This document shows, piece by piece, positions 8,599-59,456 of a stretch of DNA of 64,000 bases. Position numbers and translations under genes: made by a program. Within the stretch, counting starts at the first letter, position 1. Every line of letters begins with the position of its first letter. The stretch is from positions 38,164-102,163 of the forward strand of contig CAXDTK010000001.1 of NCBI GenBank assembly GCA_963992225.1, given 5' to 3'. The notes beneath the pieces are model-generated. The model was not told the DNA's origin. It made no database searches and worked only from the letters and a program-made list of their open reading frames with translations. This DNA comes from an uncultured Comamonadaceae bacterium (GTDB lineage: Bacteria; Pseudomonadota; Gammaproteobacteria; Burkholderiales; Burkholderiaceae_C).

Positions 8599-9825
8599 AT
8601 GGCGACCGGCGGCGCACCCCGGCGCGATGGCCCTGTGGCGCTGTCGGCGCTGTTCGACGATGCGCTGCGGGAACTGGTGCCACCCGCACCGCCGGCTGCA
8701 CGCGGCAACGCCCCTACGTCGCCGGCCGCGCCGGTCAGCGACGGCTTTCTCTACAGCGGCAACCGGCATGAGAGCGTGCCGCGCGCGCTGTTCCTCGACC
8801 GGCGCCTGACGCCACTGGAGCGCAATGCCTGGCAGGTGTTCCGCCTGCAGCTCCAGAGCGACGGTGTGACGGCGTTCCCGACCTACGACCAGCTCCGGCC
8901 CTATCTCGCGTCGATGCCTTGTGCGGCGCAGGCCTCGCACGAGACCGTGGCTCGCGCCCTGACGCTGCTGCGGCTGACGCGCTGGCTGAGCCTGGTGCGA
9001 CGACGCCGCGACCCGAAGACCGGGCGCATCCTGGGAAATCTCTACGTGCTGCACGACGAACCGCTGACGCCCTTCGAGGCGATGCAGCTCGACCCCGACT
9101 ACCTCGGCCTGGTCAGCCAAGCGCTGACCCATGCCGCGAAGGCGGTGCAGATCGTCGGCGCGAACACCCTGCGCGAGATCGCCGAAGACCCGATGCTCAA
9201 TGGCCGCACGCTGCCCACGCGCTTGCAGGTGCTGGCACAGCGCATGGCACGCAACGAATGGGCCGATGCGAGTTGTCCACAAGAGCCTGTGGATCACGAT
9301 TCCGAAGAAGGCCAGGGCGGCCTACTTCGGAATCTCGATGGCCCGTCTTCGGATTCCGAAGCAGGGCCGAAGCCCGCGCCAGACGGCTCACTTCGGAATC
9401 CGAAGGAGGACCGTACTGTACGTATGGATCGTATAAATCAAGTACGTACAGTACCGCGCGCGAAAGCGCTGCAGCACTTGCGCCTGCCCGAGCGTCTGCT
9501 GCGATTGAAGGACGAGCAGCAGAGCGGCGCGCTCGTGGCTTTGCAGCAGGTGGACGAGCCCCTTCGGCAGGCGGTGCTGGACGAATGGGATGCGCGTTGC
9601 CGCAACAGCGCGGTGCGCAACCCGGCCGGCTATCTGTTCGGCATCATCCAGAAGGCGATCCGCGGGGAGTTCAAGGCCTGGGCAGGTGACAACGGCGCAG
9701 CGCCACAAGTCGCTCGAACACCTGCGCCGGCACACGCCACACCTGCTGCCGAGTCCCGTCCCGCCGATCCCGAGGTGGCGCGCGCCTACCTGGCACAGAT
9801 TCGATCCAACCTCCGCCGCCCTTGA
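8599..9825 (+). CDS. STY4528-family ICE replication/HTH protein
   Basis: GFLYSGNRHESVPRALFLDRRLTPLERNAW, FPTYDQLRPYL, RNPAGYLFGIIQKA. Confidence 0.82.
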   Translation: MATGGAPRRDGPVALSALFDDALRELVPPAPPAARGNAPTSPAAPVSDGFLYSGNRHESVPRALFLDRRLTPLERNAWQVFRLQLQSDGVTAFPTYDQLRPYLASMPCAAQASHETVARALTLLRLTRWLSLVRRRRDPKTGRILGNLYVLHDEPLTPFEAMQLDPDYLGLVSQALTHAAKAVQIVGANTLREIAEDPMLNGRTLPTRLQVLAQRMARNEWADASCPQEPVDHDSEEGQGGLLRNLDGPSSDSEAGPKPAPDGSLRNPKEDRTVRMDRINQVRTVPRAKALQHLRLPERLLRLKDEQQSGALVALQQVDEPLRQAVLDEWDARCRNSAVRNPAGYLFGIIQKAIRGEFKAWAGDNGAAPQVARTPAPAHATPAAESRPADPEVARAYLAQIRSNLRRP

Positions 9826-9834
9826 CCGTCTGGG

Positions 9835-9851
9835 CTATCCCCAGGGGATAG
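9835..9851. repeat. 17-bp palindrome CTATCCCCAGGGGATAG, copy 1
   Basis: 8-bp arms around a central A; identical copies at 11199 and 13158. Confidence 0.95.
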
Positions 9852-9884
9852 TTGGGACAGCCCCTCTTCCGCAAGTCCGTCCCG

Positions 9885-11099
9885 TCAATCTGCTTCCACC
9901 TCTCCCGAGGATTCACCCCAATAGGCGTAGTTGAACAGTGCATCCAATTCCGTGAAGTCGGCCAGGCCCAGCGCCTGTCGCACCTCCTCGGCATGCTGGC
10001 AATACCTTGCGTAGTCGTCGGGACCGACGTTTTGCTTGTTTGGATGTAGGGGATATGCCCTGATCCCGGCCAATGCCAGCCCCGACACCGCGTTTTGGTT
10101 CATCACCGCGAACCGCTTGTTGTCAAGTGCGTGCAGCACCTCGGTCAGTAGGTTGATGCCTGCTCGCGGGATGTGCTCGAAGTGCGCATGAAGAACTGCG
10201 AAGGCGTCTCCAGGTGGGAGAGTGCCTTGGCCCACGATGTCTCTTACCGCTGCGACGAACTGACCTGGATGCTCCGCGATTCGGTTCTTGCCGCGATGCA
10301 AGCCACCCGAATGGAGCAGGCCGATCAACGTTTCAAATCGGGCCAGGAACCCTTGACTCGTATTCCCACGCGCGACGGCCCATTCCTCCAACATCCGCCT
10401 TGCCTGGCGAAGGTTGCCCTTTCGTAGGGCTTTCTGTTCCGTGAAGCCATGTTCTGAATCGTCGCTTTTCATCAACTCCAGAATGCCGGCCAACGTCGTG
10501 AAGTTCGGGCCAATCGCGCTGCTTGCCTTCTGCGCACGCTTCTTGGCCACCTTTCGGAAGATGTCGTGGATGACGTACTCCCGTTCATAGGCGTCAATGC
10601 GGTCCCTGGTCGCCGGGACGATGATTTCGTCATCGATCAGAGCGTCGAAATGCTGAGTGACCGAGGCCATCAGCGTGTCGCTCGTGCCCTCGACCAAGGC
10701 TGATGCCTCATAGTTGGCGTAGAGGCCTCCTTGTGTGAAATTGGCCGATCCGACGATCACCGAGCATCCCTTGCTGTGCTGAAAGGCGTAGATCTTCGGA
10801 TGGAATGTCTCGCTGGAATCACTGAGGTACAGCTTGAGCGCGTGTTCTTTGGTCAGCTCCAGCAGCTTTCGGAGCACGACGGGCTCGGTCAGATAGAAGT
10901 CGAGGCCGATTGCAAATCGGGCTTCCAGTCCGCGCTCAAGCGCCTTGCGCAGTGACTTCAGCAGCCCGTTCAGGGCCGATGCCTTCGCAAAGGCCACCAA
11001 GCATTCCAGGCGCTCCGCCTGCTTCAGCAGTTTCACGAGCTTGTCGCCGTGCCCGCGTTCCTCGTTCACCAGCAGTTGAACGGCGGTCTCATCCTTCAT
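9885..11099 (-). CDS. Stand-alone phospholipase D-family (HKD) nuclease with helical C-terminal domain; candidate defence gene
   Basis: Start ATG 11099 with GAAGGGGG RBS; FHPKIYAF...VIVGSANFTQGGLYANYEAS is the PLD-nuclease motif; antisense to neighbours and visibly less GC-rich. Confidence 0.8.
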   Translation of the reverse strand: MKDETAVQLLVNEERGHGDKLVKLLKQAERLECLVAFAKASALNGLLKSLRKALERGLEARFAIGLDFYLTEPVVLRKLLELTKEHALKLYLSDSSETFHPKIYAFQHSKGCSVIVGSANFTQGGLYANYEASALVEGTSDTLMASVTQHFDALIDDEIIVPATRDRIDAYEREYVIHDIFRKVAKKRAQKASSAIGPNFTTLAGILELMKSDDSEHGFTEQKALRKGNLRQARRMLEEWAVARGNTSQGFLARFETLIGLLHSGGLHRGKNRIAEHPGQFVAAVRDIVGQGTLPPGDAFAVLHAHFEHIPRAGINLLTEVLHALDNKRFAVMNQNAVSGLALAGIRAYPLHPNKQNVGPDDYARYCQHAEEVRQALGLADFTELDALFNYAYWGESSGEVEAD

Positions 11100-11198
11100 C
11101 GTTTGACCCCCTTCTTGCGTGCGGCAGCCCCAAACCAGGGGCAACCAATGGCCATTGTCCAGGTCTGCCTGCAGGCTCGGTCCTCTCCTGCCAGGCAT

Positions 11199-11215
11199 CT
11201 ATCCCCAGGGGATAG
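11199..11215. repeat. 17-bp palindrome CTATCCCCAGGGGATAG, copy 2
   Basis: Identical to 9835-9851. Confidence 0.95.
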
Positions 11216-11337
11216 CAGACACAGATCACCTTCCAGCGACTGGAAAACCAGGAGCGGCGCGGTTGCGGTTTGTTGACTGACGCCCTTCCGGGCGATGCCG
11301 ATGCTGGCGACTCGTTCCCTTACCGCGAGTCGTCACC

Positions 11338-12111
11338 ATGTCCAACGAATCCCAGCAGCCCCTGCAATTGAATCTCGGATCGCTGCGCAGCGCGATGTCA
11401 CTGACGCTGCACACCCACCACGCTTCACGCATCTGGCATGGCCGAGCGCCCGCTGAGGGCCGGCCCGGGATCATCGGCCTCAACGGCTACATCAGCGTGA
11501 TGAACAAGATGAAGCGCGGGGCCGAACAGGACGATCCTTACTCGGACTGGTGGATGCTGCGCATCGAGGACAAGCTGACGCAGACCAAGGCGAGCTTGCA
11601 GGCGCTGCGCGAGCAGGTGGACCAGGCGCTGGCCGACGTGCCACCCGCACTGTCGCTGGGCGAAAACATGAACGTGCAGCCCGTGAAGCTGCCGCTGTTC
11701 GTCAATGCGCAGCTCGGCTTCATGGCGGTGTACCTGCTGGCCGACTACGACGACCTGGCACGCAAGCTGATCCTCGCCCACCACACTGCGCTAATCGACC
11801 GCGGCACGTTGGAACGCTGGCTCAACGACGGCGCGCACGCGCTGCGCAGCCTGTTCTCCCTGGCACAGCAGTACCGCTACGCCGGCGCGACTCGCGACGA
11901 CTTCGCCTCGAAGAACGCGGTGGCGCGGGCAGCGCTGGAGAAGTTCGGCGAGCTGCCGCAGGACGTGCTCGAAGGCACGCGCCGCTCGCGCTTTGCGCCA
12001 CCGATCGCGCGGCGGGCGGGCAAGCCTGGTGCAACCGCTGAGGCCGCGCCCGTCGCTGGCGCAGCCGACGTGGCGGACGACGATCTGGACGGCGAAGGCG
12101 CCAAGGCATGA
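11338..12111 (+). CDS. PFL_4669/TIGR03761-family ICE protein (InrR-like)
   Basis: LGSLRSAMSLTLHTHHASRIWHGR, DDPYSDWWMLRIE, GTRRSRFAPPI. Confidence 0.8.
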   Translation: MSNESQQPLQLNLGSLRSAMSLTLHTHHASRIWHGRAPAEGRPGIIGLNGYISVMNKMKRGAEQDDPYSDWWMLRIEDKLTQTKASLQALREQVDQALADVPPALSLGENMNVQPVKLPLFVNAQLGFMAVYLLADYDDLARKLILAHHTALIDRGTLERWLNDGAHALRSLFSLAQQYRYAGATRDDFASKNAVARAALEKFGELPQDVLEGTRRSRFAPPIARRAGKPGATAEAAPVAGAADVADDDLDGEGAKA

Positions 12112-13157: not shown

Positions 13158-13174
13158 CTATCCCCAGGGGATAG
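13158..13174. repeat. 17-bp palindrome CTATCCCCAGGGGATAG, copy 3 (extends to 19 bp, 13157-13175)
   Basis: Identical core in the ssb-topB spacer. Confidence 0.95.
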
Positions 13175-16070: not shown

Positions 16071-16210
16071 ACCGATCCAGTCCGCTTCGCACCGACCACC
16101 GCGGACGCGTGTCATCACGACGCGGGTGCTTTTCATGTTCAACCCTTCGGGAAGTGTCCCGCTCCCGAAAGGGCGTGGTGCTCCCGGTCTTCAACTACCA
16201 GGAGAAACCC

Positions 16211-16462
16211 ATGTCCCTTGCGTTCGCATCGGCACCTTTGAGTGCTGAACAGGCCCGCGCCGAATCCATCGGCTACCAGGCTCTGGCCTACGTCGGCAAG
16301 CGCCTGCCCCTGCAGGTGCTGTGCAGCGCGGCCGGCCACTACATCGGCACCGCCGATGTGGACGGCCCGGTCTCGCGCGAGTCGGTCAGCTACTTCCGCT
16401 CGCACCACGCCGCCGAGCACGCCCTGCAAACGGGCCGCTGGCAGCAGCGACTCAACCCGTGA
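16211..16462 (+). CDS. Conserved ICE hypothetical protein
   Basis: GGAG RBS, GC-typical codons; LQVLCSAAGHYIGT...PVSRESVSYF. Confidence 0.7.
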   Translation: MSLAFASAPLSAEQARAESIGYQALAYVGKRLPLQVLCSAAGHYIGTADVDGPVSRESVSYFRSHHAAEHALQTGRWQQRLNP

Positions 16463-16486
16463 TGTCCAACCACCAGGAGCCAAGTC

Positions 16487-16879
16487 ATGAACCGTGCCCT
16501 GCCTCAAGAGGTACTTGATCAGATTGAGCTGGAACACCAGCACTTCGCTGCCGCACCCCAAGCCTTCTTCGAGGCATGGAAGCGCGGCGTCCACATCGCC
16601 GGAGCCGAATGGTTCGGCGACGGAACCCGCGAAGGCCTGCGGCGTGCCACCACCAAGTGGGATCTGCGGCCAAAGCTGATGATGCTCAACGACGCCCTCG
16701 GCGTCCTGAGCAGCGGCCAGCGGATGTTCCTGTCCGCGATGGTGAGCTTCTACAACGCCCGTGAGGGCGGTGCGATGCTCAAGCGTTGCGGCTTCGAGGG
16801 TCTGTCCGACCTGGGCGGCCTCGACCTGGAACGGCGCAAGGTCATCGCCGACCTGACGCTGAACTACAACGGCTGGTGA
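16487..16879 (+). CDS. Conserved ICE hypothetical protein
   Basis: AGGAG RBS; FFEAWKRGVHIAG, SSGQRMFLSAMVSFYN. Confidence 0.7.
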   Translation: MNRALPQEVLDQIELEHQHFAAAPQAFFEAWKRGVHIAGAEWFGDGTREGLRRATTKWDLRPKLMMLNDALGVLSSGQRMFLSAMVSFYNAREGGAMLKRCGFEGLSDLGGLDLERRKVIADLTLNYNGW

Positions 16880-16979
16880 GCTGCTTCGGCCCGCCAACGT
16901 TCTTCCTTTTCTCCCACCCCACGAGGGACATGCGTCCCTATGCGGGGCCATGTCCCTCCTTTCTTCATAGGAGTGAATC

Positions 16980-17434
16980 ATGTCCCCTGACTTTTCCATC
17001 GGTCTGCTCGTGACCGACGACGACATCGATGCGGTCATCCTGGAAGGTTGGCCGGCCGACGTGCGCAAGCCGCGCATGGTGGTATTCGACTACGCCGGCA
17101 ACGATGTGCAAGACGAGTATGTGCTGCATGTCAGCAGCGGAACTCCGAACACCGGATTGACCGGGCGCGAGGTTTTTCCGGTCGAGTACGGCCCTAACTG
17201 CCGTTACCCATCGCCCGCTGAAGTCCTTTCGGTGCTCGATGCACGCAAGCCGGCCGAAAAACCTTCCGCGCTGAGCATCGCCCGCAACGTACACCAAAGC
17301 ATCCTTGACTTGGATGCGCGGCTTGATCGCCTGGAGCAGGCGACGACTACAACAGCCTGTACCAGCTTGCGAATGGCGGCCTGATCGACCTGTTGAAGGT
17401 GCTGGGCGACCCGTCCTCTACCGCTGCCGGCTGA
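16980..17434 (+). pseudogene. Hypothetical protein with apparent frameshift near 17340
   Basis: GGAG RBS at start; after LEQ the protein-like tail DDYNSLYQLANGGLIDLLKVLG continues in another frame to TGA 17434. Confidence 0.5.
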
Positions 17435-17514
17435 CCGGCTGCCACTTCATCCACCCGCTGGGGTTCAATCCCCAGCAGGGGATTGCCTCGGCCATCCTCT
17501 GCTGGAGAAATCCC

Positions 17515-18231
17515 ATGTCCTACTCGAACAACAATCCCTTTGTCCGCGGCTACGACGGCCTGTCCGTCCAGCGGCTGCTTGCCATCTCCTACGACGACGA
17601 CTGCCCGCTGACCTACCTGCCCCTGCATCCCTCGCAGTCGAATCTGCCGGACAGCCAGGTCGAACGGCGGGCCTGCATCTTCTCGGACGACTTCGTGCTG
17701 ATCACCGAGGACCAAGCGGTCCCCGATGAACTGCAAGCGCAATGCCGCAGCCACGGGCTCGCCCGCAACGTTGTCTATGCCGTGATGGCCGAGGAAGACG
17801 GCAAGCCGCTGCACGTGGGCGACACCTACTCCGAAGAAGCGGCGCGGGAAGTCGTGCGGCGCCTGCGCTATGAAACGGGCTACTACAGCCGGTGCTGGGA
17901 GATCAGCAGCGCGCACCTCGACGCCGACGCGCATCGCTTCCTCTCCGAGCTGGCGGACATCGCCACGCCGACGCTGTTCCTGTTCGTCGCCTTCCGCATC
18001 CCGTACAGCCCGGCCATCGGGTTGAAGCTGATCGCCACGCCCTGGACCGACGAGAACCTGCGCGCGGTCGAAGGCACCACGGCCAAGCGGCTGATGCAGG
18101 AGCACCGCAAGAAGGGCATGCCGGAATCCCTGGTGCAGGTGCTGCACCTGGCCGCGCTCGCCGACGTGCGCATGCTGGTCTTCGATGCCGATGCGCAGGT
18201 GCTGGACGGCCTGCCGATCTACGACGACTGA
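17515..18231 (+). CDS. Conserved ICE hypothetical protein
   Basis: GGAG RBS; CWEISSAHL, LHLAALADVRMLVFDADA. Confidence 0.72.
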   Translation: MSYSNNNPFVRGYDGLSVQRLLAISYDDDCPLTYLPLHPSQSNLPDSQVERRACIFSDDFVLITEDQAVPDELQAQCRSHGLARNVVYAVMAEEDGKPLHVGDTYSEEAAREVVRRLRYETGYYSRCWEISSAHLDADAHRFLSELADIATPTLFLFVAFRIPYSPAIGLKLIATPWTDENLRAVEGTTAKRLMQEHRKKGMPESLVQVLHLAALADVRMLVFDADAQVLDGLPIYDD

Positions 18232-18341
18232 CACCACCTTTCGAGCCCCCACGCGGGGCTCGTTTCATTTCTGGACGAAGCCGGTGGCGGCGCAGTGCCG
18301 ATTCCCCCACGACGCTGGCCCACACCCGACGCACGCTGCTC

Positions 18342-18416
18342 GCATGTTCGCTGGCGTTGCCGGCAAGCATGCCCAGGCAGTCGAGACCTTCGAGGCTGCG
18401 GCACGGTTCGCCGCGC
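18342..18416 (+). repeat. Three-hairpin element, copy 2
   Basis: GCTGGC/GCCGGC, CATGCCCAG, GCAGTC-N11-GGCTGC, CGG-TTCG-CCG. Confidence 0.75.
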
Positions 18417-18524
18417 TGGTTGCTTTTCCTTCCACGGGCGCATGCGCGTCCATCCACCTCACCCCCAAGGGACATGCCTCCCTTGCGGGCGGAAGTTCCT
18501 TGGATTGCCACAAGGAGCCTCCTA

Positions 18525-19322
18525 ATGGATACCCAAGCCATCCGCGCACAGATGCCGACGCTGGTTCGCGGCCACGTGCCTTCCAACGTCCGCAGCTTCA
18601 AGTTCAACATCTTCGACGGCCAGCCCAAGGTTTCGACGCTGGGCTTCCACGTTGATCCCAAGCCTTTCGAGGGCAAGGTTATCGCCACCACCGACGAGGC
18701 CATCGTCGTCAAGACGGGCCGGGCCGAGTTCGCGGTGCTCGACAAGGCGCTCGTCACCGATGTGCCCGACGAAGGCGCCAAGGTGCAGGTCGAACCGTAT
18801 GCGCGGCGCCGCTTCGACGGCATGCGCGCGGACACGCCCGAGGAGAGCACCGAGTTCACCGCCGACGGCCAGCCGTACACGGTGAAGCGGCTCATCCTGG
18901 GTTCCGCGCCGGCCAAGTTGCCGATCCCCGAGCCGCAGTGCCCCGAGCTGCAGGAGCTGATCCACCAACTGGAGCAGTTGCCCGCGCCCGATGGCTTTCG
19001 CCGCATCACGCACCTGCTGGTGGATGCCGGCGCGCGGGACTTCACGGTGGTCGATCCGAGCCCCCGCAACATCATCGCCACGCCGCCGGCCATCGGCTTC
19101 ACCGTCGCCTCAGCGAAGTTCCAGGGGCGCGTCACCGTGCTCTACGAGCGCGGCCTCGACCTCTACGCGGTGGAGCTGCACCGCAACAGCAATCTGGTCG
19201 AGCGGGTCGATGAAGTGTCGTTCGACGAGCTGGGCCAGGCCCTGGAGCGGCTGATCGACGACGGGAGCTGGCGCCTCATCCGCGTGCAGCGCCTGTCCGG
19301 CCGCAAGCTGGTCCAGCACTGA
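18525..19322 (+). CDS. Conserved ICE hypothetical protein
   Basis: AAGGAG RBS; RSFKFNIFDG, GFRRITHLLVDAGA, YERGLDLYAVEL. Confidence 0.72.
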   Translation: MDTQAIRAQMPTLVRGHVPSNVRSFKFNIFDGQPKVSTLGFHVDPKPFEGKVIATTDEAIVVKTGRAEFAVLDKALVTDVPDEGAKVQVEPYARRRFDGMRADTPEESTEFTADGQPYTVKRLILGSAPAKLPIPEPQCPELQELIHQLEQLPAPDGFRRITHLLVDAGARDFTVVDPSPRNIIATPPAIGFTVASAKFQGRVTVLYERGLDLYAVELHRNSNLVERVDEVSFDELGQALERLIDDGSWRLIRVQRLSGRKLVQH

Positions 19323-19400
19323 GCCCCTGCGTTCCTAAGCGGCTTCCCGTCCCCGCGGCGGGAAGCCTTTCCTCCCATACCTCGATTGGAGACCACTTCC

Positions 19401-19766
19401 ATGACTGTTCGATTCAAAGGCACCGAGCTTCGGCCCGTGCTTGCCGAGGCGGCGGCCAACCAGTGCCGCGTCGTCCTGGTCAAGGACCAGGGCGTGTATT
19501 TCATGGCCGAGCGCGGCGAGAGCCGGCCCGATGGGCGGCGCAAGACCATCGCCTATGCCGTGGGCTGCAACCCTGATGTCGATGTGTTCGACGACTGGTG
19601 GGAACTGGCGCGCGCCGAATTCGGCGGCGACGACTTCGGCGAGTTCTTCGACCTGCGGGAACGGGTGTTCAGCCGCATCCTGCACAGCGAGGACGACCTC
19701 GAAGTGTCGGCCACGGCCACGCACCTGTCGATGCAGCCCATGCCCGCTGCGCCGGCCGGCCACTGA
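19401..19766 (+). CDS. DUF3085 protein
   Basis: LVKDQGVYFMAERG, AYAVGCNPD, GGDDFGEF. Confidence 0.8.
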   Translation: MTVRFKGTELRPVLAEAAANQCRVVLVKDQGVYFMAERGESRPDGRRKTIAYAVGCNPDVDVFDDWWELARAEFGGDDFGEFFDLRERVFSRILHSEDDLEVSATATHLSMQPMPAAPAGH

Positions 19767-19889
19767 CCGTCCTGCTTCCCAGCCCCTCATGAAGGGGCTT
19801 CACTTTTTCCCGAGGACGCCGTCAATGCGGGGCGTCTCGGATACCGATTGCCGCTCGCGCGGGCGCGTGCCAGGCGCCACGCTTATCAC

Positions 19890-19968
19890 CATGTTCCGCT
19901 GACACCCGTCAGCAGCATGCCCAGGCAGTCTCGATCTTCAAGACTGCGATGCGGTTCCGACCGCGTTG
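19890..19968 (+). repeat. Three-hairpin element, copy 3
   Basis: GCTGAC/GTCAGC, CATGCCCAG, GCAGTC-N11-GACTGC, GCGGT-TCCG-ACCGC. Confidence 0.75.
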
Positions 19969-20124
19969 ATCACCCAGTTCGCTCCGGCATCCCAGCGCGA
20001 ACGGCCATCGGTTCTCCCGATGGTGATGCCACCCAAGCTGTTCCTTCAACCCACGCGGGGGTTCCACACCTTCCCCGCCTTGGGTCGGGTGTGTCTCCGC
20101 CTCTTTGTTCTCAGGAGATTCACC

Positions 20125-20688
20125 ATGACCACTTCCACCGAAAGGTCCTTCTTCGACCTGCACATCACCGGACTCGGGTATCTCAATCGCATCCGCGAAG
20201 TGAAGCCCAAGAAAGGCGATGCGTTCCTGGCCTGCGACATCGCGGCGCTCAACGGCCCCAGCGATGATGTGGCCTACGTGCGTTTCGACACGCGCGTCTC
20301 GGGCTCCGAAGCGCAGCACCTGGTGCGCCGCTGCATCCAAGCGGTTGATGCCGAGAAGAAGGTGATGATCGGCTTCCGCCTGGGCGACCTGTGGACCGAC
20401 ACCTTTACCTACTCCAAGGGCAAGCGTGCCGGCGAGCAGGGGGTGAGCCTCAAGGCCCGCCTGCTGTTCGTCAGTTGGATCAAGGTCGACGGCAAGCTCG
20501 TCTACAAGGCCGAGCCCAAGCCGACCGACGCCGACGACCGCGACGAACGCGACGTGCGCGCCACGGATGTCCCCGCGACGTCCGCCGAGCCGCAAGCCGC
20601 TGCGTCCGAGCCCGCCAGGCCCGCCGCTGAAGCTGCCGATGAAGCCACTGCCGATGCGCCCGCATTGGAAGTTGCCGAGTCGTTCTGA
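20125..20688 (+). CDS. DUF3577 / STY4534-family ICE protein
   Basis: FFDLHITGLGYLNRIREV, FLACDIAALNG, KARLLFVSWIKVDG. Confidence 0.8.
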   Translation: MTTSTERSFFDLHITGLGYLNRIREVKPKKGDAFLACDIAALNGPSDDVAYVRFDTRVSGSEAQHLVRRCIQAVDAEKKVMIGFRLGDLWTDTFTYSKGKRAGEQGVSLKARLLFVSWIKVDGKLVYKAEPKPTDADDRDERDVRATDVPATSAEPQAAASEPARPAAEAADEATADAPALEVAESF

Positions 20689-20808
20689 TCCGCAAGGCCC
20701 TGACTCTGAATTGAGCCCAGGGCCTTGTCTTCTCCCACTCGCGTGCGCATGCGACCGTCACCATGACAGCCGTGTGCGTGATCGCAGCTTCGTCCGCAGG
20801 AGTTCTTC

Positions 20809-21438
20809 ATGATCACCATTCCCGGCCAATTGGCCATCAAGACCATCCACGGCCGCAACGGCGACTTCAACGTCGGGCGCCTTGCGACCTCCATCGGCGA
20901 GTTCGTCGTGAAGAACGCCGAACTCGACCAGTACGCCGAAGGCAAGTACGAGGGCGATTTCGCCATCGCGGAGATTCGCCCGTCCACGTACACCGCCAAC
21001 GGTCGCATGGTCATCGAGATCCGCGCCCTCCTGGGCGGGATGACCTTGTCCAACATCGACGCCCTGAGCCGTGACGACGCCCGCCGGCTGAGTCCGCAGG
21101 AAGTCGATCCGATCGACGAGGAAGCGCAGACCGCCACGCCGACGCCGACGACCGCCCCCAAGGCGGCCGGCCGGAAGAAGGCGCGCAGCTCGCGCGACCC
21201 GCTGGTCGATACCACGCCGTTCGGCAGCGAACCGGCTGCTGCGTCTGCCGAGGCTCCGGTCCAGGCGGACGAAGACGGCGACGCGGCACTGTTCGGTGTG
21301 CTCTGGCCGCTGGGCGATGTCGTCAAGCTCGATGCCACCGTGGATCGGCGCGTGCTGCGTCAACAGCGCGACCGTCTCGGCGACCTGGGCTACGAGTTCG
21401 CTCCGCTGTCCCAGGACTGGCACCTCGCCAGGGTCTGA
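20809..21438 (+). CDS. DUF3275-family protein
   Basis: MITIPGQLAIKTIHGRNGDFNVGRLATSIGEF, VKLDATVDRRVLRQQ. Confidence 0.78.
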   Translation: MITIPGQLAIKTIHGRNGDFNVGRLATSIGEFVVKNAELDQYAEGKYEGDFAIAEIRPSTYTANGRMVIEIRALLGGMTLSNIDALSRDDARRLSPQEVDPIDEEAQTATPTPTTAPKAAGRKKARSSRDPLVDTTPFGSEPAAASAEAPVQADEDGDAALFGVLWPLGDVVKLDATVDRRVLRQQRDRLGDLGYEFAPLSQDWHLARV

Positions 21439-21540
21439 TCCCATCGCCACTTCACGCCGCGTGCCTGCGGCTTTCCACCAACCCGCCGGGGTTCCTTCCC
21501 CGGCGGGAGGACTCCGGCCCTTTCTCACAGGAGTCATTCC

Positions 21541-21936
21541 ATGGGCTGGACATTCGTTCGATTGACGCGCGATCAATTGATCCGCGAGCTGACCGCAACT
21601 GAGGAAACCGAGCGGTCGCGCAATGAGGTCATCGATCACACGCTGGTCGGCAACGTGCTGTGGACGGTGGTGCGCGTCACCGCCAAGCAGGCCGGTGTCC
21701 TGGGTCTCGCACCCGGAGAGTCGGCCACCTTGATTGGCTGCCATCTGCTGGAAAGCGAGGGCCGCGAATGGGGCTACAAGTCCCTGGTCGAGGCCGAGCA
21801 CCCGTACTACTACTCGTGCCCGCTGCGCTATCTCGACATGGCGCCGCAGCGCTGCGCCACTTGGCGCGCAAGGGTGCATGCCTTCCATCAGCAGCATCCG
21901 GCGAGCAGTGTGGCCGGCGATGCAGCCACTGAGTGA
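21541..21936 (+). CDS. Conserved ICE hypothetical protein
   Basis: AGGAG RBS; WGYKSLVEAEHPYYYSCPLRYL. Confidence 0.7.
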   Translation: MGWTFVRLTRDQLIRELTATEETERSRNEVIDHTLVGNVLWTVVRVTAKQAGVLGLAPGESATLIGCHLLESEGREWGYKSLVEAEHPYYYSCPLRYLDMAPQRCATWRARVHAFHQQHPASSVAGDAATE

Positions 21937-21943
21937 GGCGCAC

Positions 21944-22213
21944 ATGGACACCATCCTGTCGTCCATGCGGCCCGAGCTGCTTCGCTTCGTCGAAGAACAG
22001 TTGGCCAACAACGAGGTTTCCGACGACGACGAGCTGCGCGAGCACTTCATCGCCAACGGCCTGAGCGAAGAACAGGCGTGGCAGGCACTGACCTACCGCG
22101 CCCTGTACTTGCGCTACATCTTCCTCGAAGGCTTCACGCCGATCCTTAAAGGCCAGGAAGCGCTTTGCTTCAACCCGCATAGCCGAGGCTGGGAGCCGGT
22201 TCAGAACCCATAG
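21944..22213 (+). CDS. Hypothetical protein (89 aa)
   Basis: GAGG RBS, coupled to upstream gene, typical codon usage. Confidence 0.6.
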   Translation: MDTILSSMRPELLRFVEEQLANNEVSDDDELREHFIANGLSEEQAWQALTYRALYLRYIFLEGFTPILKGQEALCFNPHSRGWEPVQNP

Positions 22214-23392: not shown

Positions 23393-24478
23393 GGCTCAGT
23401 TCGCGTTGAGTGCGGATGGCCCGGGGCCGATGGCCAGTGCGAGCAGGGAAACCGCATCGACCCTGAGTCGCGCGTTGCGGTCGAGCGCCCGGAACCAGCC
23501 GAGGTAGTTCGGCAGGTAGTGCGTGGAAATGCCGTTGAAGCGCCGCAGCCAGGTCTTCAGGCGACTGTGATACGCGTTGACGTTCTGGACATGCCACGGC
23601 CCGCGGATGCGCTCGCCGGCAGACATGTTGATGGCTTGGTGCTCAATCGCCAGTTCCACGGCGGCCTGGTGAAGGTGATTGCTGCCGTCCGAGCACAGCA
23701 CAGAGTCGTCGGCCAGTGCCTGTGGCAGCACCGCCTTGAGCGCAGCCTTGCCGGTGTTGGGCAGCACGAAGTCGCTGGTTTCGCCGGAGCGGTTGCGCAT
23801 CACCAGTATGGGCACTTGTTCGGACGACACCCCGCGCTTGGCAGCTTTGCCGCCGCGCCGGCGAGGTGCCCGTTGCGTTTGTCGGGCCAGCCGTGCTGGC
23901 TGGCCCTTGTACGAGAGCAGTTGGTACGTCTCGTCAGCCTCGACAACACCGGCCATGTGCACTGCCTTGGCCTCGCGAGGGCAGGCCAGCCAGCGATGGC
24001 GCCAACGAAAGGCGGTCGTGCTGTGCACGCCGAGTCGGGTGGCCGCTTTGCGAACGCTCAGTCCTTCGTCGAGCACCTTGGCTTGGTCGAGCCACTTGTC
24101 GCGGTAGCGCAACCGCGCCAGCGGTGTGCCGGTCAGCGCATTGAAGGTGATACGGCAGTCGCGGCACTTGTATCGCTGCAACCCATTGGCAAAGCCATTG
24201 CGCACCACGTGCTCGCCGTTGCAAGCCGGGCACATCGGTCGCGCGGCCAACCGCTTCTCGATGCAGTCGGCAACTTCGTCGATGGCCTGGGCGTGTGCAA
24301 GCTCATGGAGCACCAGCTTGCGCTGGTTGGCTGTCAGCCGCCCCAGCGCATCGCGCAGCCGCTTCAATTCGTCCGCCTTCATTTGCGTCTCCCGGTGACT
24401 CTTCTGTCACCACCGACGCAGTCTCGAACTCAACAGGCTCACTGGGCGAGCCTGTCACCATTCAACGCGAACTGAGCC
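23393..24478 (-). mobile_element. IS1595-family insertion sequence
   Basis: 17-bp perfect terminal IRs GGCTCAGTTCGCGTTGA (23393-23409 / 24462-24478); 8-bp TSD TTTTCTTT (23385-23392 / 24479-24486). Confidence 0.93.
23396..24382 (-). CDS. IS1595-family transposase
   Basis: Zn ribbon CPAC...RYKCRDC, HTH, VVEADETY, LCSDG, HVQNVNAYHSRLKTWL. Confidence 0.9.
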   Translation of the reverse strand: MKADELKRLRDALGRLTANQRKLVLHELAHAQAIDEVADCIEKRLAARPMCPACNGEHVVRNGFANGLQRYKCRDCRITFNALTGTPLARLRYRDKWLDQAKVLDEGLSVRKAATRLGVHSTTAFRWRHRWLACPREAKAVHMAGVVEADETYQLLSYKGQPARLARQTQRAPRRRGGKAAKRGVSSEQVPILVMRNRSGETSDFVLPNTGKAALKAVLPQALADDSVLCSDGSNHLHQAAVELAIEHQAINMSAGERIRGPWHVQNVNAYHSRLKTWLRRFNGISTHYLPNYLGWFRALDRNARLRVDAVSLLALAIGPGPSALNAN

Positions 24479-25429: not shown

Positions 25430-25496
25430 GGTTCCTTCACCGGACATGCACGCGCGCATGTCCGCATCCTTTCATCTTCAATGCCAGGAGATTCCC

Positions 25497-26612
25497 ATGG
25501 CCCTCATGTTCCCGCGGCTCGCCCGCAACTTCGTCAAGAACGGGTACTTCCCCACGGATGAACCCACGCTCGAAAGAGCACTCGCCGCGCTGGCGCCCGC
25601 TGCTCCCTCGGCCGGTCCGCTGTGCATCCTCGATCCCTGCGCCGGCGAAGGCGTGGCGATCGCCGAAGCCGCGCACGCCCTCGGGCGCGAACGGGTCCAG
25701 GCCTTCGCCGTCGAGTACGAGGCGGAGCGCGCACGCCACGCCCGGCAACTGGTCGATCGCTGCATCCACGGCGACCTGATGGACACGCTGATCAGCCGGC
25801 AGAGCTTTGGCCTGCTGTGGCTCAACCCGCCGTATGGCGACCTGTCCAAGGACACCAACGGCAACGTCGGCTACCAGGGCCAGGGCCGCGCGCGGCTGGA
25901 AAAGCTGTTCTACCAGAAGGCGCTGCCGCTGCTGCAGTACGGCGGCGTGCTGATCTACATCGTGCCGCACTACGTGCTCGACGCCGAACTGGTCGGATGG
26001 CTGACCCGGCACTTCGCCGAGCTGCGCATCTACCGCGCGGTGGACACGCAGTTCAGGCAGGTCGTGATCTTCGGTCGCAAGGTTCGCCAGCGCGACCAGG
26101 TGTCGGATTCGGTCAAGGCCACGCGCGCACTGCTGCTGCAGATAGGTCTCGGCGACGCCGAAGCGGAAGAGCTGCCGGTCGAATGGCCGTTCCTGCCGTA
26201 CACGGTGCCTGCCACGGCCGAGCCGGAGCACTTCTACCGCGTGACGATGGAGCCCGAGCAGTTCGCCGATGAAGTCGGCCGGCTGCAAGGACTCTGGCCG
26301 ACGCTCGACACGCACCTTGGCGCCGCGCAGCAGTCGCTGCGGCCCCCGGCGCGAGGGTTATCGCATTGGCATCTCGCCTTAGCGCTCGCCGCGGGTGCGA
26401 TTTCCGGCGTGGTGAAGTCCAAGACGGGCCGCGTGCTCGTCGTCAAGGGCGACACCCACAAGGAGAAGACCTTGCAGACGGAGTACACCGAGCGCGACGA
26501 CGGCACCGTGGCCGAGACGCGCATCCTGACCGACAAGTTCGTGCCGGTCATCCGCGCCTGGGACATGACGCCGGGCTCGTCGACGTGTGGCGAGGTGCTG
26601 ACCATCCGCTGA
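25497..26612 (+). CDS. Orphan SAM-dependent DNA methyltransferase (N6-adenine type)
   Basis: Motif I LDPCAGEG, motif IV LNPPYG; NGYFPTD N-terminus; no cognate REase adjacent. Confidence 0.85.
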   Translation: MALMFPRLARNFVKNGYFPTDEPTLERALAALAPAAPSAGPLCILDPCAGEGVAIAEAAHALGRERVQAFAVEYEAERARHARQLVDRCIHGDLMDTLISRQSFGLLWLNPPYGDLSKDTNGNVGYQGQGRARLEKLFYQKALPLLQYGGVLIYIVPHYVLDAELVGWLTRHFAELRIYRAVDTQFRQVVIFGRKVRQRDQVSDSVKATRALLLQIGLGDAEAEELPVEWPFLPYTVPATAEPEHFYRVTMEPEQFADEVGRLQGLWPTLDTHLGAAQQSLRPPARGLSHWHLALALAAGAISGVVKSKTGRVLVVKGDTHKEKTLQTEYTERDDGTVAETRILTDKFVPVIRAWDMTPGSSTCGEVLTIR

Positions 26613-26724
26613 TCGCTGTTCCCTGACGATTCGCCGTCGCTTCATCCACCAACTCATCCACCCAACGGGGCCATGTCACCCCGCCGGGTGCCGTGGCCCC
26701 TCTTTCATCCGAAGGAGAAACACC

Positions 26725-27030
26725 ATGGCACTCGCAGTTCTCAACCTGGCGTCGCAAGCACGCTTTGCCCCCGGACACCTGGTCATGACCCGCGGCATCG
26801 ATGCGCTGGTCCAGCAAGGCCGGCTCAACCCGGCACCGTATCTGTCCCGCCATCTCAGCGGCGATTGGGGCGACCTCGACGACAGCGACCGGCGTCAGAA
26901 CGACGCCGCGTTGCGCTCCGGCGAGGATCGGCTTTTCTCGTCCTACCAGGTCGCGCCTGACCTGAAGCTCTGGATCATCACCGAGTGGGATCGCAGCGTG
27001 ACCACGCTGCTGTTGCCCAGCGAATACTGA
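26725..27030 (+). CDS. Conserved plasmid/ICE small protein
   Basis: AAGGAG RBS; RHLSGDWGDL, RLFSSY, LWIITEWDRSVTTLLLPSEY. Confidence 0.75.
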   Translation: MALAVLNLASQARFAPGHLVMTRGIDALVQQGRLNPAPYLSRHLSGDWGDLDDSDRRQNDAALRSGEDRLFSSYQVAPDLKLWIITEWDRSVTTLLLPSEY

Positions 27031-27131
27031 TCTTCATCCACCGCGGCCGCGCGCCGCTCTTCTCTTCCCAACCCGGGGCATGCCATCGCCCCGCAGGGGA
27101 GGTGCATGCCTCATTCCTATGGAGCATCACC

Positions 27132-29414
27132 ATGTCCCTCGATACCAACATTGTTCCCGCCGCCGATGGCACTCCCGTCCAGGGCGACCTGCTCGAAGCG
27201 GCTGCTTCTCCCCTGGCGATGAGCCTTCAGGATTTCGTTGCCGAATTCGGCGACGAACTGCTGGACTCGCTCAACCGCGCCAACCCTCCCGTCTACACCA
27301 GCCAGGCCCGGCCGCATCGCCAGCTCGTGCTGGCCAGTCTCAAGCGCAAGCTGTTCGGCGCGCAGGCCGAGGTGGTGCATGCCGTCACCGAGCTGCTGGC
27401 CGACCGCGGCGAACGCGCCGCGATCGTCAATGGCGAAATGGGCTGCGGCAAGACCACCGTTGGCATTGCCACGGCGGCCGTGCTGCACGCCGAAGGCTAC
27501 CGCCGCACGCTGGTCCTCTCACCGCCTCACCTGGTCTACAAGTGGCGCCGGGAAATCCAGGAAACCGTGGCCGGCGCGAAGGTCTGGGTGCTCAACGGCC
27601 CAGACACGCTGGTCAAGCTCATCAAGCTGCGCGAGCAGTTGGGCGTGCCGGTGCGCGGCCAGGAGTTCTACGTGCTCGGGCGCGTGCGGATGCGCATGGG
27701 TTTCCACTGGAAGCCCGTCTTCAACGTGCGGCACACGAAGCACGGCGAAGTCGGCGCATGCCCGGATTGCGGCCAGGTCATCACCAACCTCGACGGCGAG
27801 CCAATCAACCCGGTCGAACTCGAAGCTGAGGACTACCGCCGCCGGTGCAGCCATTGCGCCGCACCGCTGTGGACGCTGATGCGACCGCGCAGCCTGTCCG
27901 CCAGCGACCAGTCCACGGCCGTCTTCAAAGCCTTGCAGCGCATCCCGACCATCGGGGAAGTCACCGCGCAGAAGCTGATGAAGAAGTTCGGCGACGGCTT
28001 CCTGGCCTCGATGCTGGGCGACAACATCCACGAGTTCATCAACCTCATGGATGCCAACGGCGAGCTGGTCTTCTCGGACGCCCAAGCGCACCGCATGGAG
28101 CGGGCGATGGCGAACATGGAGTTCGGCTTCGGTGAGGGTGGCTACCAGCCGTCCGAGTTCATCAAGAGGTATTTGCCGCAAGGCACGTTCGACCTGCTCA
28201 TCGCCGACGAGGCGCACGAGTACAAGAACGGCGGTAGCGCCCAGGGCCAGGCCATGGGCGTGCTCGCTGCGAAGGCGCGCAAGACCTTGCTGCTTACCGG
28301 CACGCTGATGGGTGGCTACGGCGACGACCTGTTCCACCTGCTGTTCCGAGCCCTGCCGGGGCGAATGATCGAAGACGGCTACCGCCCGACCAAGAGCGGC
28401 AGCATGACCTCGGCCGCGATGGCGTTCATGCGCGATCACGGGATTCTCAAGGACATCTATTCCGAGAGCACGGGCACGGCGCACAAGACGGCCAAGGGCA
28501 CCAAGGTATCGGTGCGCACGGTCAAGGCGCCGGGCTTCGGCCCGAAGGGCGTGCTACGTTGCGTCCTGCCGTTCACGGTATTTCTCAAGCTCAAGGACAT
28601 CGGCGGCAATGTGCTGCCGTCCTACGACGAGGAGTTCCGCGAGGTGGCGATGGACACGGCGCAAGCCGCGGCCTATCGCGATCTGTCGTTTCGTCTGACC
28701 TCGGCGCTGAAACAGGCGCTGGCCAAGCGCGACACGACGCTGCTCGGCGTGGTCCTCAACGTGCTGCTGGCCTGGCCGGATTGCTGCTTCCGGTCGGAGA
28801 CGGTGGTGCACCCTCGCACGCGCCAGACCTTGGCCTTCGTTCCGGCTCAGTTCAACGAGCTGGAGGTGATGCCCAAGGAGCGCGAGCTGATCGAGATCTG
28901 CAAGCAGGAGAAGGCTGCGGGTCGCAAGACGCTGGTCTACTCGGTCTACACCGGAACGCGCGACACCACGTCGCGTTTGAAGGTGCTGCTGGAGCAGGAG
29001 GGCTTCAAGGTGGCGGTGTTGCGCGCGAGCGTAGACGCCAGCCGTCGCGAAGACTGGATCGCCGAGCAGTTGGACCGTGGCATCGACGTGCTCGTCACGA
29101 ACCCGGAGCTGGTCAAGACGGGTCTCGACCTGTTGGAGTTTCCGACGATCGTGTTCATGCAGTCGGGCTACAACGTCTACAGCCTGCAGCAGGCGGCCCG
29201 GCGCTCATGGCGCATCGGCCAGAAGCTGCCGGTTCGCGTGATCTACCTCGGCTATGCGGCTTCCTCGCAGATGACCTGCCTGGGGCTGATGGCGCGAAAG
29301 ATCATGGTCTCGCAGAGCACGTCGGGAGACGTGCCCGAGTCGGGACTGGATGTGCTGAACCAGGACGGTGATTCCGTCGAGGTGGCACTGGCCCGGCAAC
29401 TCGTCGCGGCCTGA
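27132..29414 (+). CDS. SF2 (DEAD/SNF2-like) helicase of ICE core
   Basis: GEMGCGKTT Walker A, LIADEAHE, LLTGTL, QAARRSWRIGQ. Confidence 0.9.
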   Translation: MSLDTNIVPAADGTPVQGDLLEAAASPLAMSLQDFVAEFGDELLDSLNRANPPVYTSQARPHRQLVLASLKRKLFGAQAEVVHAVTELLADRGERAAIVNGEMGCGKTTVGIATAAVLHAEGYRRTLVLSPPHLVYKWRREIQETVAGAKVWVLNGPDTLVKLIKLREQLGVPVRGQEFYVLGRVRMRMGFHWKPVFNVRHTKHGEVGACPDCGQVITNLDGEPINPVELEAEDYRRRCSHCAAPLWTLMRPRSLSASDQSTAVFKALQRIPTIGEVTAQKLMKKFGDGFLASMLGDNIHEFINLMDANGELVFSDAQAHRMERAMANMEFGFGEGGYQPSEFIKRYLPQGTFDLLIADEAHEYKNGGSAQGQAMGVLAAKARKTLLLTGTLMGGYGDDLFHLLFRALPGRMIEDGYRPTKSGSMTSAAMAFMRDHGILKDIYSESTGTAHKTAKGTKVSVRTVKAPGFGPKGVLRCVLPFTVFLKLKDIGGNVLPSYDEEFREVAMDTAQAAAYRDLSFRLTSALKQALAKRDTTLLGVVLNVLLAWPDCCFRSETVVHPRTRQTLAFVPAQFNELEVMPKERELIEICKQEKAAGRKTLVYSVYTGTRDTTSRLKVLLEQEGFKVAVLRASVDASRREDWIAEQLDRGIDVLVTNPELVKTGLDLLEFPTIVFMQSGYNVYSLQQAARRSWRIGQKLPVRVIYLGYAASSQMTCLGLMARKIMVSQSTSGDVPESGLDVLNQDGDSVEVALARQLVAA

Positions 29415-58301: not shown

Positions 58302-59456
58302 ATGAGCGAAACCCCGACCACCGGCTTCAAGCCGAAGAAATCTGTGGCGCTGTCCGGCGTGACGGCCGGCAATACCGCGCTGTGCACCGTCGGCCGCAGC
58401 GGCAACGACCTGCATTACCGCGGCTACGACATCCTGGACATCGCCGAGGTCTGCGAGTTCGAGGAGATCGCCCACCTGCTGGTGCACGGCAAGCTGCCCA
58501 CGCGCGCCGAGTTGCGCGCCTACAAGGCCAAGCTCAGGGCCATGCGCGGCTTGCCTGCCAGTGTGAAAGAGTCGCTGGAACGCTTGCCCGCTGGCGCCCA
58601 CCCGATGGACGTGATGCGCACCGGCGTGTCGGCGCTGGGCTGCATCCTGCCCGAGAAGGACGACCACAGCCTGCCCGGCGCCCGCGACATCGCCGACCGG
58701 CTCATGGCCAGCCTGGGCTCCATGCTGCTGTACTGGTATCACTGGAGCACGCAGGGCCGCCGCATCGAGGTGGAGACGGACGACGACTCCATCGGCGGCC
58801 ACTTCCTGCGTCTGCTGCACGGCACGACGCCGCCTGAGAGCTGGGTGCGCGCCATGCACACGTCGCTCAACCTCTATGCCGAGCATGAGTTCAACGCTAG
58901 CACCTTCACCGCGCGCGTCATCGCCGGCACGGGCAGCGACATGTACTCGTCCATTGCCGGCGCCATCGGCGCGCTGCGCGGCCCCAAGCATGGTGGCGCC
59001 AACGAGGTGGCCTTCGAGATTCAGAAGCGCTATGACAACCCGAACGAGGCTGAGGCGGACATCCGCCGCCGCGTGGAGGCCAAGGAGGTGGTCATCGGCT
59101 TCGGCCACCCGGTCTACACCGTCAGCGACCCGCGCAACGTCGTCATCAAGGGCGTGGCCAGGAGCCTATCGGACGAGGCGGGCTCCACCAAGATGTTTGA
59201 CATCGCAGAACGGCTGGAGTCAGTCATGTGGGACGTCAAGAAAATGTTCCCCAACCTCGACTGGTTCAGCGCCGTCAGCTATCACATGATGGGCGTGCCC
59301 ACGGCGATGTTCACGCCTCTGTTCGTCATCTCCCGCACCAGCGGTTGGGCCGCGCACGTCATCGAGCAGCGCGTGGACAACAAGATCATTCGCCCCAGCG
59401 CGAATTACACCGGCCCTGAAGACCAGCGCTTCGTGCCCATTGACGAACGCGCATGA
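58302..59456 (+). CDS. prpC: 2-methylcitrate synthase
   Basis: [56 protein letters not shown]. Confidence 0.95.

Follow-up and report, generated by a model that had tools for sequence, protein, structure and literature searches.

Analysis of a 64,000-nucleotide stretch of DNA from an uncultured Comamonadaceae bacterium (GCA_963992225.1, contig CAXDTK010000001.1, positions 38,164 to 102,163; the whole stretch is referred to as the window) revealed a minus-strand gene at 9885-11099 whose 404-residue product is very probably (about 0.85) a member of the END nuclease family, predicted to be a stand-alone, type IV-like enzyme carried as cargo by an integrative and conjugative element (ICE). The analysis itself established the two folds of the protein, the conservation of their motifs, the Asn substitutions in the C-terminal domain (N334 by spacing and structure), the lack of a partner gene and the location within an ICE. 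An earlier reading made from the sequence only had described an HxK...GSAN phospholipase D (PLD) motif followed by a helical C-terminal region; this description is confirmed, the motifs are conserved in relatives, and all of those picked out were found (FHPK at residues 99-102, GSAN at 117-120, IPRAGINLLTEVLHALDNKRFAVMN at 310-334 and DFTELDALFNYAY at 381-393).

END nucleases were described by Yee et al. 2025 (bioRxiv 10.1101/2025.03.31.646159; PMC12191111) as single proteins with a PLD plus iEndoIII architecture, the named members being END-PaCF1, END-PAK, END-Pa3, END-Pa4, END-Ec1, END-Se and END-Vc. Their N-terminal domain is an HxK PLD with 7CLG_A as the best HHpred match, and their C-terminal domain, which is without the catalytic residues, matches PF21790 and EndoIII/Ogg. 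In the experiments of these authors, ENDs restricted phages with hypermodified T, C or G and spared unmodified phages; they act early and non-abortively, the overexpressed homologues were not toxic, and an HPK-to-APA mutant of END-PaCF1 lost defense (PMC12191111). Specificity follows the C-terminal domain, which Yee et al. 2025 judged to be inactive, gp88 of Pbunavirus 14-1 inhibits ENDs, and the ENDs have no associated methyltransferase and are missed by PADLOC and DefenseFinder. The window protein has the same defining elements, namely an HxK PLD, an EndoIII/Ogg-like C-terminal domain, absent catalytic residues and a stand-alone gene. The features of the gene and protein are listed below, where conservation counts refer to 243 full-length relatives with 26-100% identity.

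9885..11099, minus strand: END nuclease gene, a predicted modification-dependent restriction endonuclease (open reading frame (ORF) and translation, >240 full-length homologues, AlphaFold (AF2) model)
11107..11114, minus strand: ribosome-binding site GAAGGGGG, visible in the sequence itself 7-8 nt upstream of the ATG at 11099
10620..11099, minus strand: single-HKD PLD nuclease domain, residues 1-160 (Pfam PLDc_2, SauUSI 7clg match, Foldseek)
10794..10802, minus strand: HPK catalytic motif, H100-P101-K102 (H100 and K102 each in 243/243)
10740..10751, minus strand: GSAN motif, G117-S118-A119-N120, second half of the HKD signature (G117, S118 and N120 each in 243/243)
10518..10607, minus strand: long connecting helix, residues 165-194, joining the two domains (DSSP on the AF2 model)
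9909..10514, minus strand: all-helical helix-hairpin-helix (HhH)-GPD domain, Ogg/EndoIII-like ("iEndoIII"), residues 196-397, predicted modified-base sensor (PF21790, Foldseek, hhalign)
10287..10310, minus strand: SGGLHRGK loop, residues 264-271, an hhalign block with L267 opposite EndoIII Leu81 (S264 in 241/243)
10125..10214, minus strand: helix-hairpin-helix, with helix 296-307, hairpin IPRAG 310-314 and helix 315-325 (AF2 secondary structure and hhalign; G314 in 235/243)
10152..10154, minus strand: Asn316 at the EndoIII catalytic Lys120 position (hhalign, high posterior; Asn in 242/243)
10098..10100, minus strand: Asn334 at the inferred EndoIII Asp138 position (spacing and AF2 secondary structure; Asn in 242/243)

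The coordinates of the gene include the stop codon. The mechanically called ORF is longer and reaches 11198; the ATG at 11099 was taken as the real start because of the ribosome-binding site just upstream and because every homologue begins at the same Met. The GC content is 0.58 over the gene vs 0.65-0.70 in the flanks, a dip that fits acquired cargo, and a sigma-70 promoter scan found none for the gene. The AF2 model of the full-length protein has a mean pLDDT (predicted local distance difference test) of 92.4 and a pTM (predicted template modeling score) of 0.79.

The N-terminal domain is matched by Pfam PLDc_2 over residues 23-154 (E 1.2e-11) and by RE_NgoFVII (E 1.1e-6). A search of the PDB with a profile of 61 homologues returned SauUSI (7clg, E 8.7e-19 over residues 8-195), BfiI (5e-7) and NgoAVII (2e-3), and Foldseek with the full-length model placed SauUSI 7clg first (E 9.5e-12), followed by Zucchini, NucT, BfiI, NgoAVII and Nuc. 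The earlier proposal of a single-HKD PLD nuclease thus holds, with SauUSI, BfiI and NgoAVII matched by both sequence and fold. In addition to the HPK and GSAN motifs, E131 is kept in all 243 relatives and N129 in 242. A single HKD motif constitutes half an active site, and single-HKD enzymes such as Nuc and BfiI work as dimers; it follows from this PLD enzymology that the window enzyme would have to act as a dimer. The PADLOC check suggested by the sequence-only reading returned the PLD models mREase_IV (SauUSI-like, E 9.4e-10) and DrmC (E 8e-13), both confined to the PLD part, and no model in the PADLOC and NCBIfam scans spanned the whole protein.

Foldseek with the full-length model produced PLD matches only, and the C-terminal domain was therefore modelled separately. 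The model of residues 196-404 is all-helical (pLDDT 94.2, pTM 0.91), and its top Foldseek match in the PDB is TmOgg from Thermotoga maritima (3n0u; probability 1.00, TM score 0.51/0.52, full length), followed by SsOgg from Sulfolobus solfataricus (3fhg, TM 0.45) and MutY (TM 0.38), with all other listed matches scoring below 0.3; apart from MutY, the two Ogg enzymes are its sole specific matches. By sequence, Pfam PF21790 ("putative 8-oxoguanine DNA glycosylase OGG-like") is matched over residues 273-379 (E 3.3e-4, 20.9 bits) and also in 49 of 61 relatives (best E 1.4e-6). HMMER searches of the PDB, by sequence and by profile, returned nothing real for the domain, the only matches being colicin immunity proteins with E > 0.5. 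A third line came from hhalign, in which a 243-sequence profile of the domain was aligned with three EndoIII sequences, that of Escherichia coli EndoIII being 100% identical to 2abk. The two are colinear over 168 columns (pairwise P 0.0088), with two blocks of high posterior, SGGLHRGK (264-271) on IGLYNSKA (79-86) and IPRAGIN (310-316) on LPGVGRK (114-120). The 243-sequence profile was needed for this result; global mode gave a meaningless alignment, and a shallow 61-sequence profile recovered the wedge-loop block only. The sequence-only reading had anticipated a helix-hairpin-helix glycosylase-like domain here and suggested AlphaFold and Foldseek as a check; that check, run on residues 196-404, found such a fold, and PF21790, the Ogg matches and the alignment with EndoIII bear the claim out.

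The alignment with EndoIII allowed the DNA-contact and catalytic elements of the domain to be located. In the wedge loop, L267 falls opposite Leu81, which fills the void in EndoIII (PMC5924532); 240 of the 243 relatives have an aliphatic residue at position 267. Lys120 and Asp138 are the catalytic residues of EndoIII, whose activity is abolished by K120A and D138A (PMC5924532). On the basis of the sequence alignment, N316 can be placed firmly as the replacement of the catalytic Lys. The corresponding replacement of the Asp by N334 is probable from spacing and predicted structure: N334 lies 18 residues after N316, the same spacing as Lys120-Asp138, and, following a loop of nine residues, N-caps helix 335-342, and with N334 set opposite Asp138, FAVMNQNAV reads against TIAVDTHIF of EndoIII. 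No invariant Asp is present in the GPD region whichever alignment path is taken. The domain is thus predicted to keep the DNA-binding and base-flipping parts, wedge loop and HhH hairpin, and appears to be without the canonical chemistry. Because both catalytic positions are Asn, it most likely reads bases without excising them, and the earlier idea of a glycosylase-like domain reading modified bases is supported and refined to a probably non-catalytic reader. Lys-to-Gln and Asp-to-Asn mutants of glycosylases are classic substrate traps, and the paired, near-invariant Asn residues resemble such mutants, which might, by analogy, point to a selection for long-lived base-flipped complexes.

Several observations weigh against this interpretation. 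The PF21790 score of the window protein lies below the Pfam cut-off of 27 bits, the hhalign probability is only 4.6%, and the Foldseek E-values for the C-terminal domain are weak (0.04 and 0.17), with a high root mean square deviation (8.7 Å). Given these poor E-values and deviations, the fold assignment depends on several weak, agreeing lines and on no single strong one; in their agreement, they support a predicted HhH glycosylase fold of Ogg/EndoIII type. The gapped path of hhalign sets D326, not N334, opposite Asp138, but the posterior is low and just 169 of 243 relatives have D326. E320 (242/243) and D386 (241/243) are nearly invariant and could in principle support some chemistry. Finally, the likeness to the tested ENDs was compared through the published description of their architecture, not by sequence.

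These acidic residues are the basis of the alternative that the C-terminal domain is still an active glycosylase, acting through non-canonical residues (E320, D386), and that the PLD domain cuts at or near the resulting abasic sites. The fold is indeed that of active Ogg glycosylases, and some HhH glycosylases, for example TAG, work without the canonical Asp. The near-total Asn occupancy of the Lys120 and inferred Asp138 positions, at which substitution inactivates EndoIII, argues in the opposite direction, as do the verdict of Yee et al. 2025 that the domain is inactive and the loss of defense caused by the HPK mutation alone. Taken together, these data make an active glycosylase very unlikely, and the preferred reading remains an END nuclease with a non-excising sensor.

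The mechanism envisaged for such an enzyme begins with the C-terminal domain, which would bind DNA through the HhH hairpin and the wedge loop (L267) and probe flipped-out bases in its pocket. With Asn316 and Asn334 at the catalytic positions, no base excision would take place, and the domain would dwell on the bulky hypermodified bases of many phages. Two PLD subunits would dimerize to create one metal-independent catalytic center, as in Nuc, BfiI and SauUSI, and cut the modified DNA. Host and ICE DNA would be spared, being unmodified in such ways, and so no methyltransferase would be needed. By analogy with the homologues in the literature, the window protein would be expected to restrict hypermodified phages, to owe its specificity to the C-terminal domain and to act non-abortively. 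The modification-dependent anti-phage role proposed earlier thus gains support by analogy from the findings of Yee et al. 2025 on the same architecture, and the abortive infection offered as its alternative is disfavored since the family is reported to be non-abortive.

Relatives of the protein are numerous. A full HMMER scan at E<=1e-30 gave 167 clusters (50% identity), which consist mainly of full-length proteins (~400 residues) alongside some fragments, and named relatives come from Pseudomonas (among them P. aeruginosa, 79% identical), Ralstonia, Xanthomonas, Burkholderia and sphingomonads. The homologues on chromosomes or other islands comprise more distant ones (identity of at most 52%) and also some that are close (Ralstonia, 66-69%), and one homologue adjoins Mrr-like, PIN and AbiJ genes. 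The neighborhoods of five homologue groups differ, with no conserved neighbor and no methyltransferase beside the gene in any of them, so that the earlier statement that the window gene has no linked methyltransferase stands. A blastn search of complete E. coli genomes with the END gene and an Enterobacterales homologue found no match, nor did a search with a profile of distant members bring up any named protein of P. aeruginosa, E. coli, Salmonella or Vibrio.

The END gene lies inside an ICE of the PFGI-1 class, identified by matches to ICE_PFGI_1_parB, an STY4528-family replication protein, ICE_PFL4669 and a MobH/PFGI-1 relaxase, with further ICE genes for ParA, DUF2857, DUF3158, TopB, TraD and TraC. 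Between the STY4528-family gene (8599-9825) and the PFL_4669/AcaB-like gene (11338-12111), no other gene lies on the minus strand. The interval between these two genes (8599-12111) is a cargo hotspot of PFGI-1-class ICEs. Its contents vary, with a RelE/ParE pair and two hypothetical proteins in a Pseudomonas veronii element and a 340-residue hypothetical protein in Ralstonia sp. RRA.1, and in 12 distinct loci, from 11 species-representative genomes and one metagenomic contig, the same slot holds an END homologue with 54-72% identity (79% over a partial match in locus L056). These loci belong to Pseudomonas bharatica, Thauera, Stutzerimonas (two species), a Rhodocyclaceae bacterium, Acidovorax, Cupriavidus, Methyloversatilis, Hydrogenophaga, Xanthomonas and Pseudomonas sp. 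nanlin1, together with the locus of a gammaproteobacterial metagenome-assembled genome, whose match is partial and whose contig includes the flank on the STY4528 side only. Across the END-slot loci, the identity of the backbone proteins is 62-93%.

Within the slot, the gene is bracketed exactly by two copies of a 17-bp palindrome, CTATCCCC(A/T)GGGGATAG, of which the window holds three perfect copies vs 0.06 expected by chance. The copies, for which strand does not apply, are as follows.

9835..9851: palindrome copy between the convergent 3' ends of the STY4528-family and END genes
11199..11215: palindrome copy in the divergent END / PFL_4669 intergenic region
13158-13174: third palindrome copy, perfect

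Two copies flank the END gene in all 11 of the other ICE-borne END loci examined. In END-less relatives (P. veronii, Ralstonia), a single copy is found just upstream of the PFL_4669 gene and a degenerate copy in the SSB-topB intergenic region, and the chromosomal END loci have no copies. The palindrome could serve the ICE core operons as an operator, or it could be a site of cassette insertion or exchange. In PFGI-1-class ICEs, the END gene and its two palindromes would in the latter case form a discrete cassette that enters or swaps at the palindrome upstream of the PFL_4669 gene. This reading, with ICEs as the vehicles and an enzyme that also polices mobile DNA, is unlikely. If true, ICEs would spread modification-dependent restriction among Pseudomonas, Stutzerimonas, Thauera, Acidovorax, Cupriavidus, Xanthomonas and Hydrogenophaga, and ENDs could, beyond phages, also police incoming mobile DNA with deazaguanine or other modifications.

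The location also raises the possibility that the enzyme serves the ICE itself, as an addiction or exclusion nuclease directed against cells that lose the element or against competing incoming elements. The presence of a RelE/ParE toxin-antitoxin pair in the same slot of the P. veronii element and the retention of END in this slot at 12 loci are consistent with such a role. No antidote gene is present, however, close homologues are chromosomal and outside ICEs, and homologues proved non-toxic on overexpression and active against phages (PMC12191111). Service to the ICE is accordingly highly improbable, and phage restriction by an ICE-borne END nuclease is retained as the preferred function.

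A DUF6094/Eco57I-like S-adenosylmethionine (SAM) methyltransferase (25446-26612) is encoded in the same ICE, 14 kb from the END gene, and is followed by an 809-residue SNF2/ResIII helicase, the two spanning 25446-29414. Plasmid or ICE records with this methyltransferase number 26, and P. aeruginosa elements of 82-104 kb are among them. The 12 methyltransferase records listed of the 26 include none of the three plasmid records that contain a full-length END (Burkholderia twice, Novosphingobium), and in one of the 12, Ralstonia sp. RRA.1, the END slot is filled by other cargo. The methyltransferase thus occurs independently of END, and it is therefore not the partner of END. That the window protein is a type IIS-like enzyme of the BfiI/NgoAVII kind, cutting unmodified sequence in a host protected by this methyltransferase, is hardly credible: matches of the N-terminal domain to RE_NgoFVII and BfiI and the presence of the methyltransferase in the same ICE would fit, but the C-terminal domain is neither B3-like nor another sequence-reading domain, the listed records separate the two genes, and chromosomal END homologues have no methyltransferase alongside. 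The methyltransferase-helicase pair itself looks like a transferred orphan module, perhaps for anti-restriction, and not like a restriction-modification system.

Other features of the ICE and its surroundings were also recorded. An IS1595-family (ISXO2-like DDE) transposase is encoded at 23396-24382, minus strand, between the DUF932 gene and the methyltransferase gene. Downstream of topB, ORFs of 300-480 codons without a Pfam match are found at 16139-17077 (minus), 17892-19322 (plus) and 20758-22056 (minus), and the Pfam-less ORFs within 16139-22056 may be further ICE cargo. The left end of the window encodes a ScfR-type short-chain fatty acyl-CoA regulator with helix-turn-helix, M78 peptidase and ScfRs domains (846-2381) and the right end encodes AcnD, a 2-methylisocitrate dehydratase (59453-62077). 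Since the regulator and AcnD are both propionate-metabolism proteins, the ICE may have gone into the prp locus or landed next to it. There is no tRNA gene in the window.

An END nuclease in this setting is of some practical interest. Therapeutic Pseudomonas phages (Pbunavirus) are restricted by ENDs, as are many hypermodified coliphages, and the presence of an END predicts failure of phage therapy unless the phage encodes an anti-END protein. In a conserved slot of a broad-host-range ICE, this barrier could be moved by conjugation between genera, and current defense-finder libraries miss it, the PADLOC models matching the PLD domain only. The former catalytic positions, at which Asn is almost totally conserved, also provide concrete residues with which to ask how a repair glycosylase became a modification sensor.

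Among known systems, GmrSD and Brig1 share with the window protein the predicted target class, glucosyl-hydroxymethylcytosine or hypermodified phage DNA (T-even), and the single-gene organization; GmrSD consists of DUF262 and DUF1524 (HNH-like) and Brig1, which belongs to the uracil-DNA-glycosylase superfamily, is an active glycosylase, and neither fold was found in the window protein. DrmC of DISARM was rejected, its matches being limited to the PLD domain (NCBIfam, 30.5 bits vs a cut-off of 133) and no DISARM genes being adjacent.

The Ogg2-type enzymes TmOgg (3N0U) and SsOgg (3FHG) and EndoIII (2ABK) resemble the C-terminal domain in overall fold, which is two-lobed, helical and of HhH-GPD type, and in having the HhH hairpin and a wedge loop with a Gly-Leu pair. 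Unlike these enzymes, the window domain has Asn at the positions of the catalytic Lys and (by inference) Asp, has no iron-sulfur cluster, is fused to a nuclease and is predicted to be a sensor rather than a repair enzyme.

On the side of the nuclease, BfiI and NgoAVII, which are type IIS enzymes (2C1L, 4RCT), have the same dimerizing single-HKD domain of Pfam family RE_NgoFVII, but carry a B3-like C-terminal sequence reader, act on unmodified DNA and are paired with methyltransferases. A type IIS PLD restriction-modification enzyme was rejected on the Ogg-like helical, not B3-like, C-terminal domain and on the lack of an adjacent methyltransferase. The type IV enzyme SauUSI (7CLG) is the closest solved relative of the nuclease domain, with 27% identity, and is likewise modification-dependent and without a methyltransferase. 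It differs in its length of 953 residues, its ATP dependence, its helicase domains and its reading of 5-methylcytosine and 5-hydroxymethylcytosine through an SRA-like domain, where the window protein would use HhH-GPD. A SauUSI-type enzyme was also rejected, the matches covering residues 8-195 only of a 404-residue protein with no helicase Pfam match.

The END nucleases are alike in each of the respects compared: a single gene, an HxK PLD nearest to SauUSI 7CLG, a PF21790-like, catalytically depleted C-terminal domain, no methyltransferase, variable neighborhoods and a lack of recognition as a system by PADLOC. They occur in Pseudomonas, Xanthomonas and other Proteobacteria, as do the relatives of the window protein. 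This kind of enzyme has already been described, and the new point here is a modest one, the setting of the gene: the known ENDs lie in chromosomal defense islands, whereas the window copy occupies a palindrome-bracketed cargo slot in the core region of a PFGI-1-class ICE.

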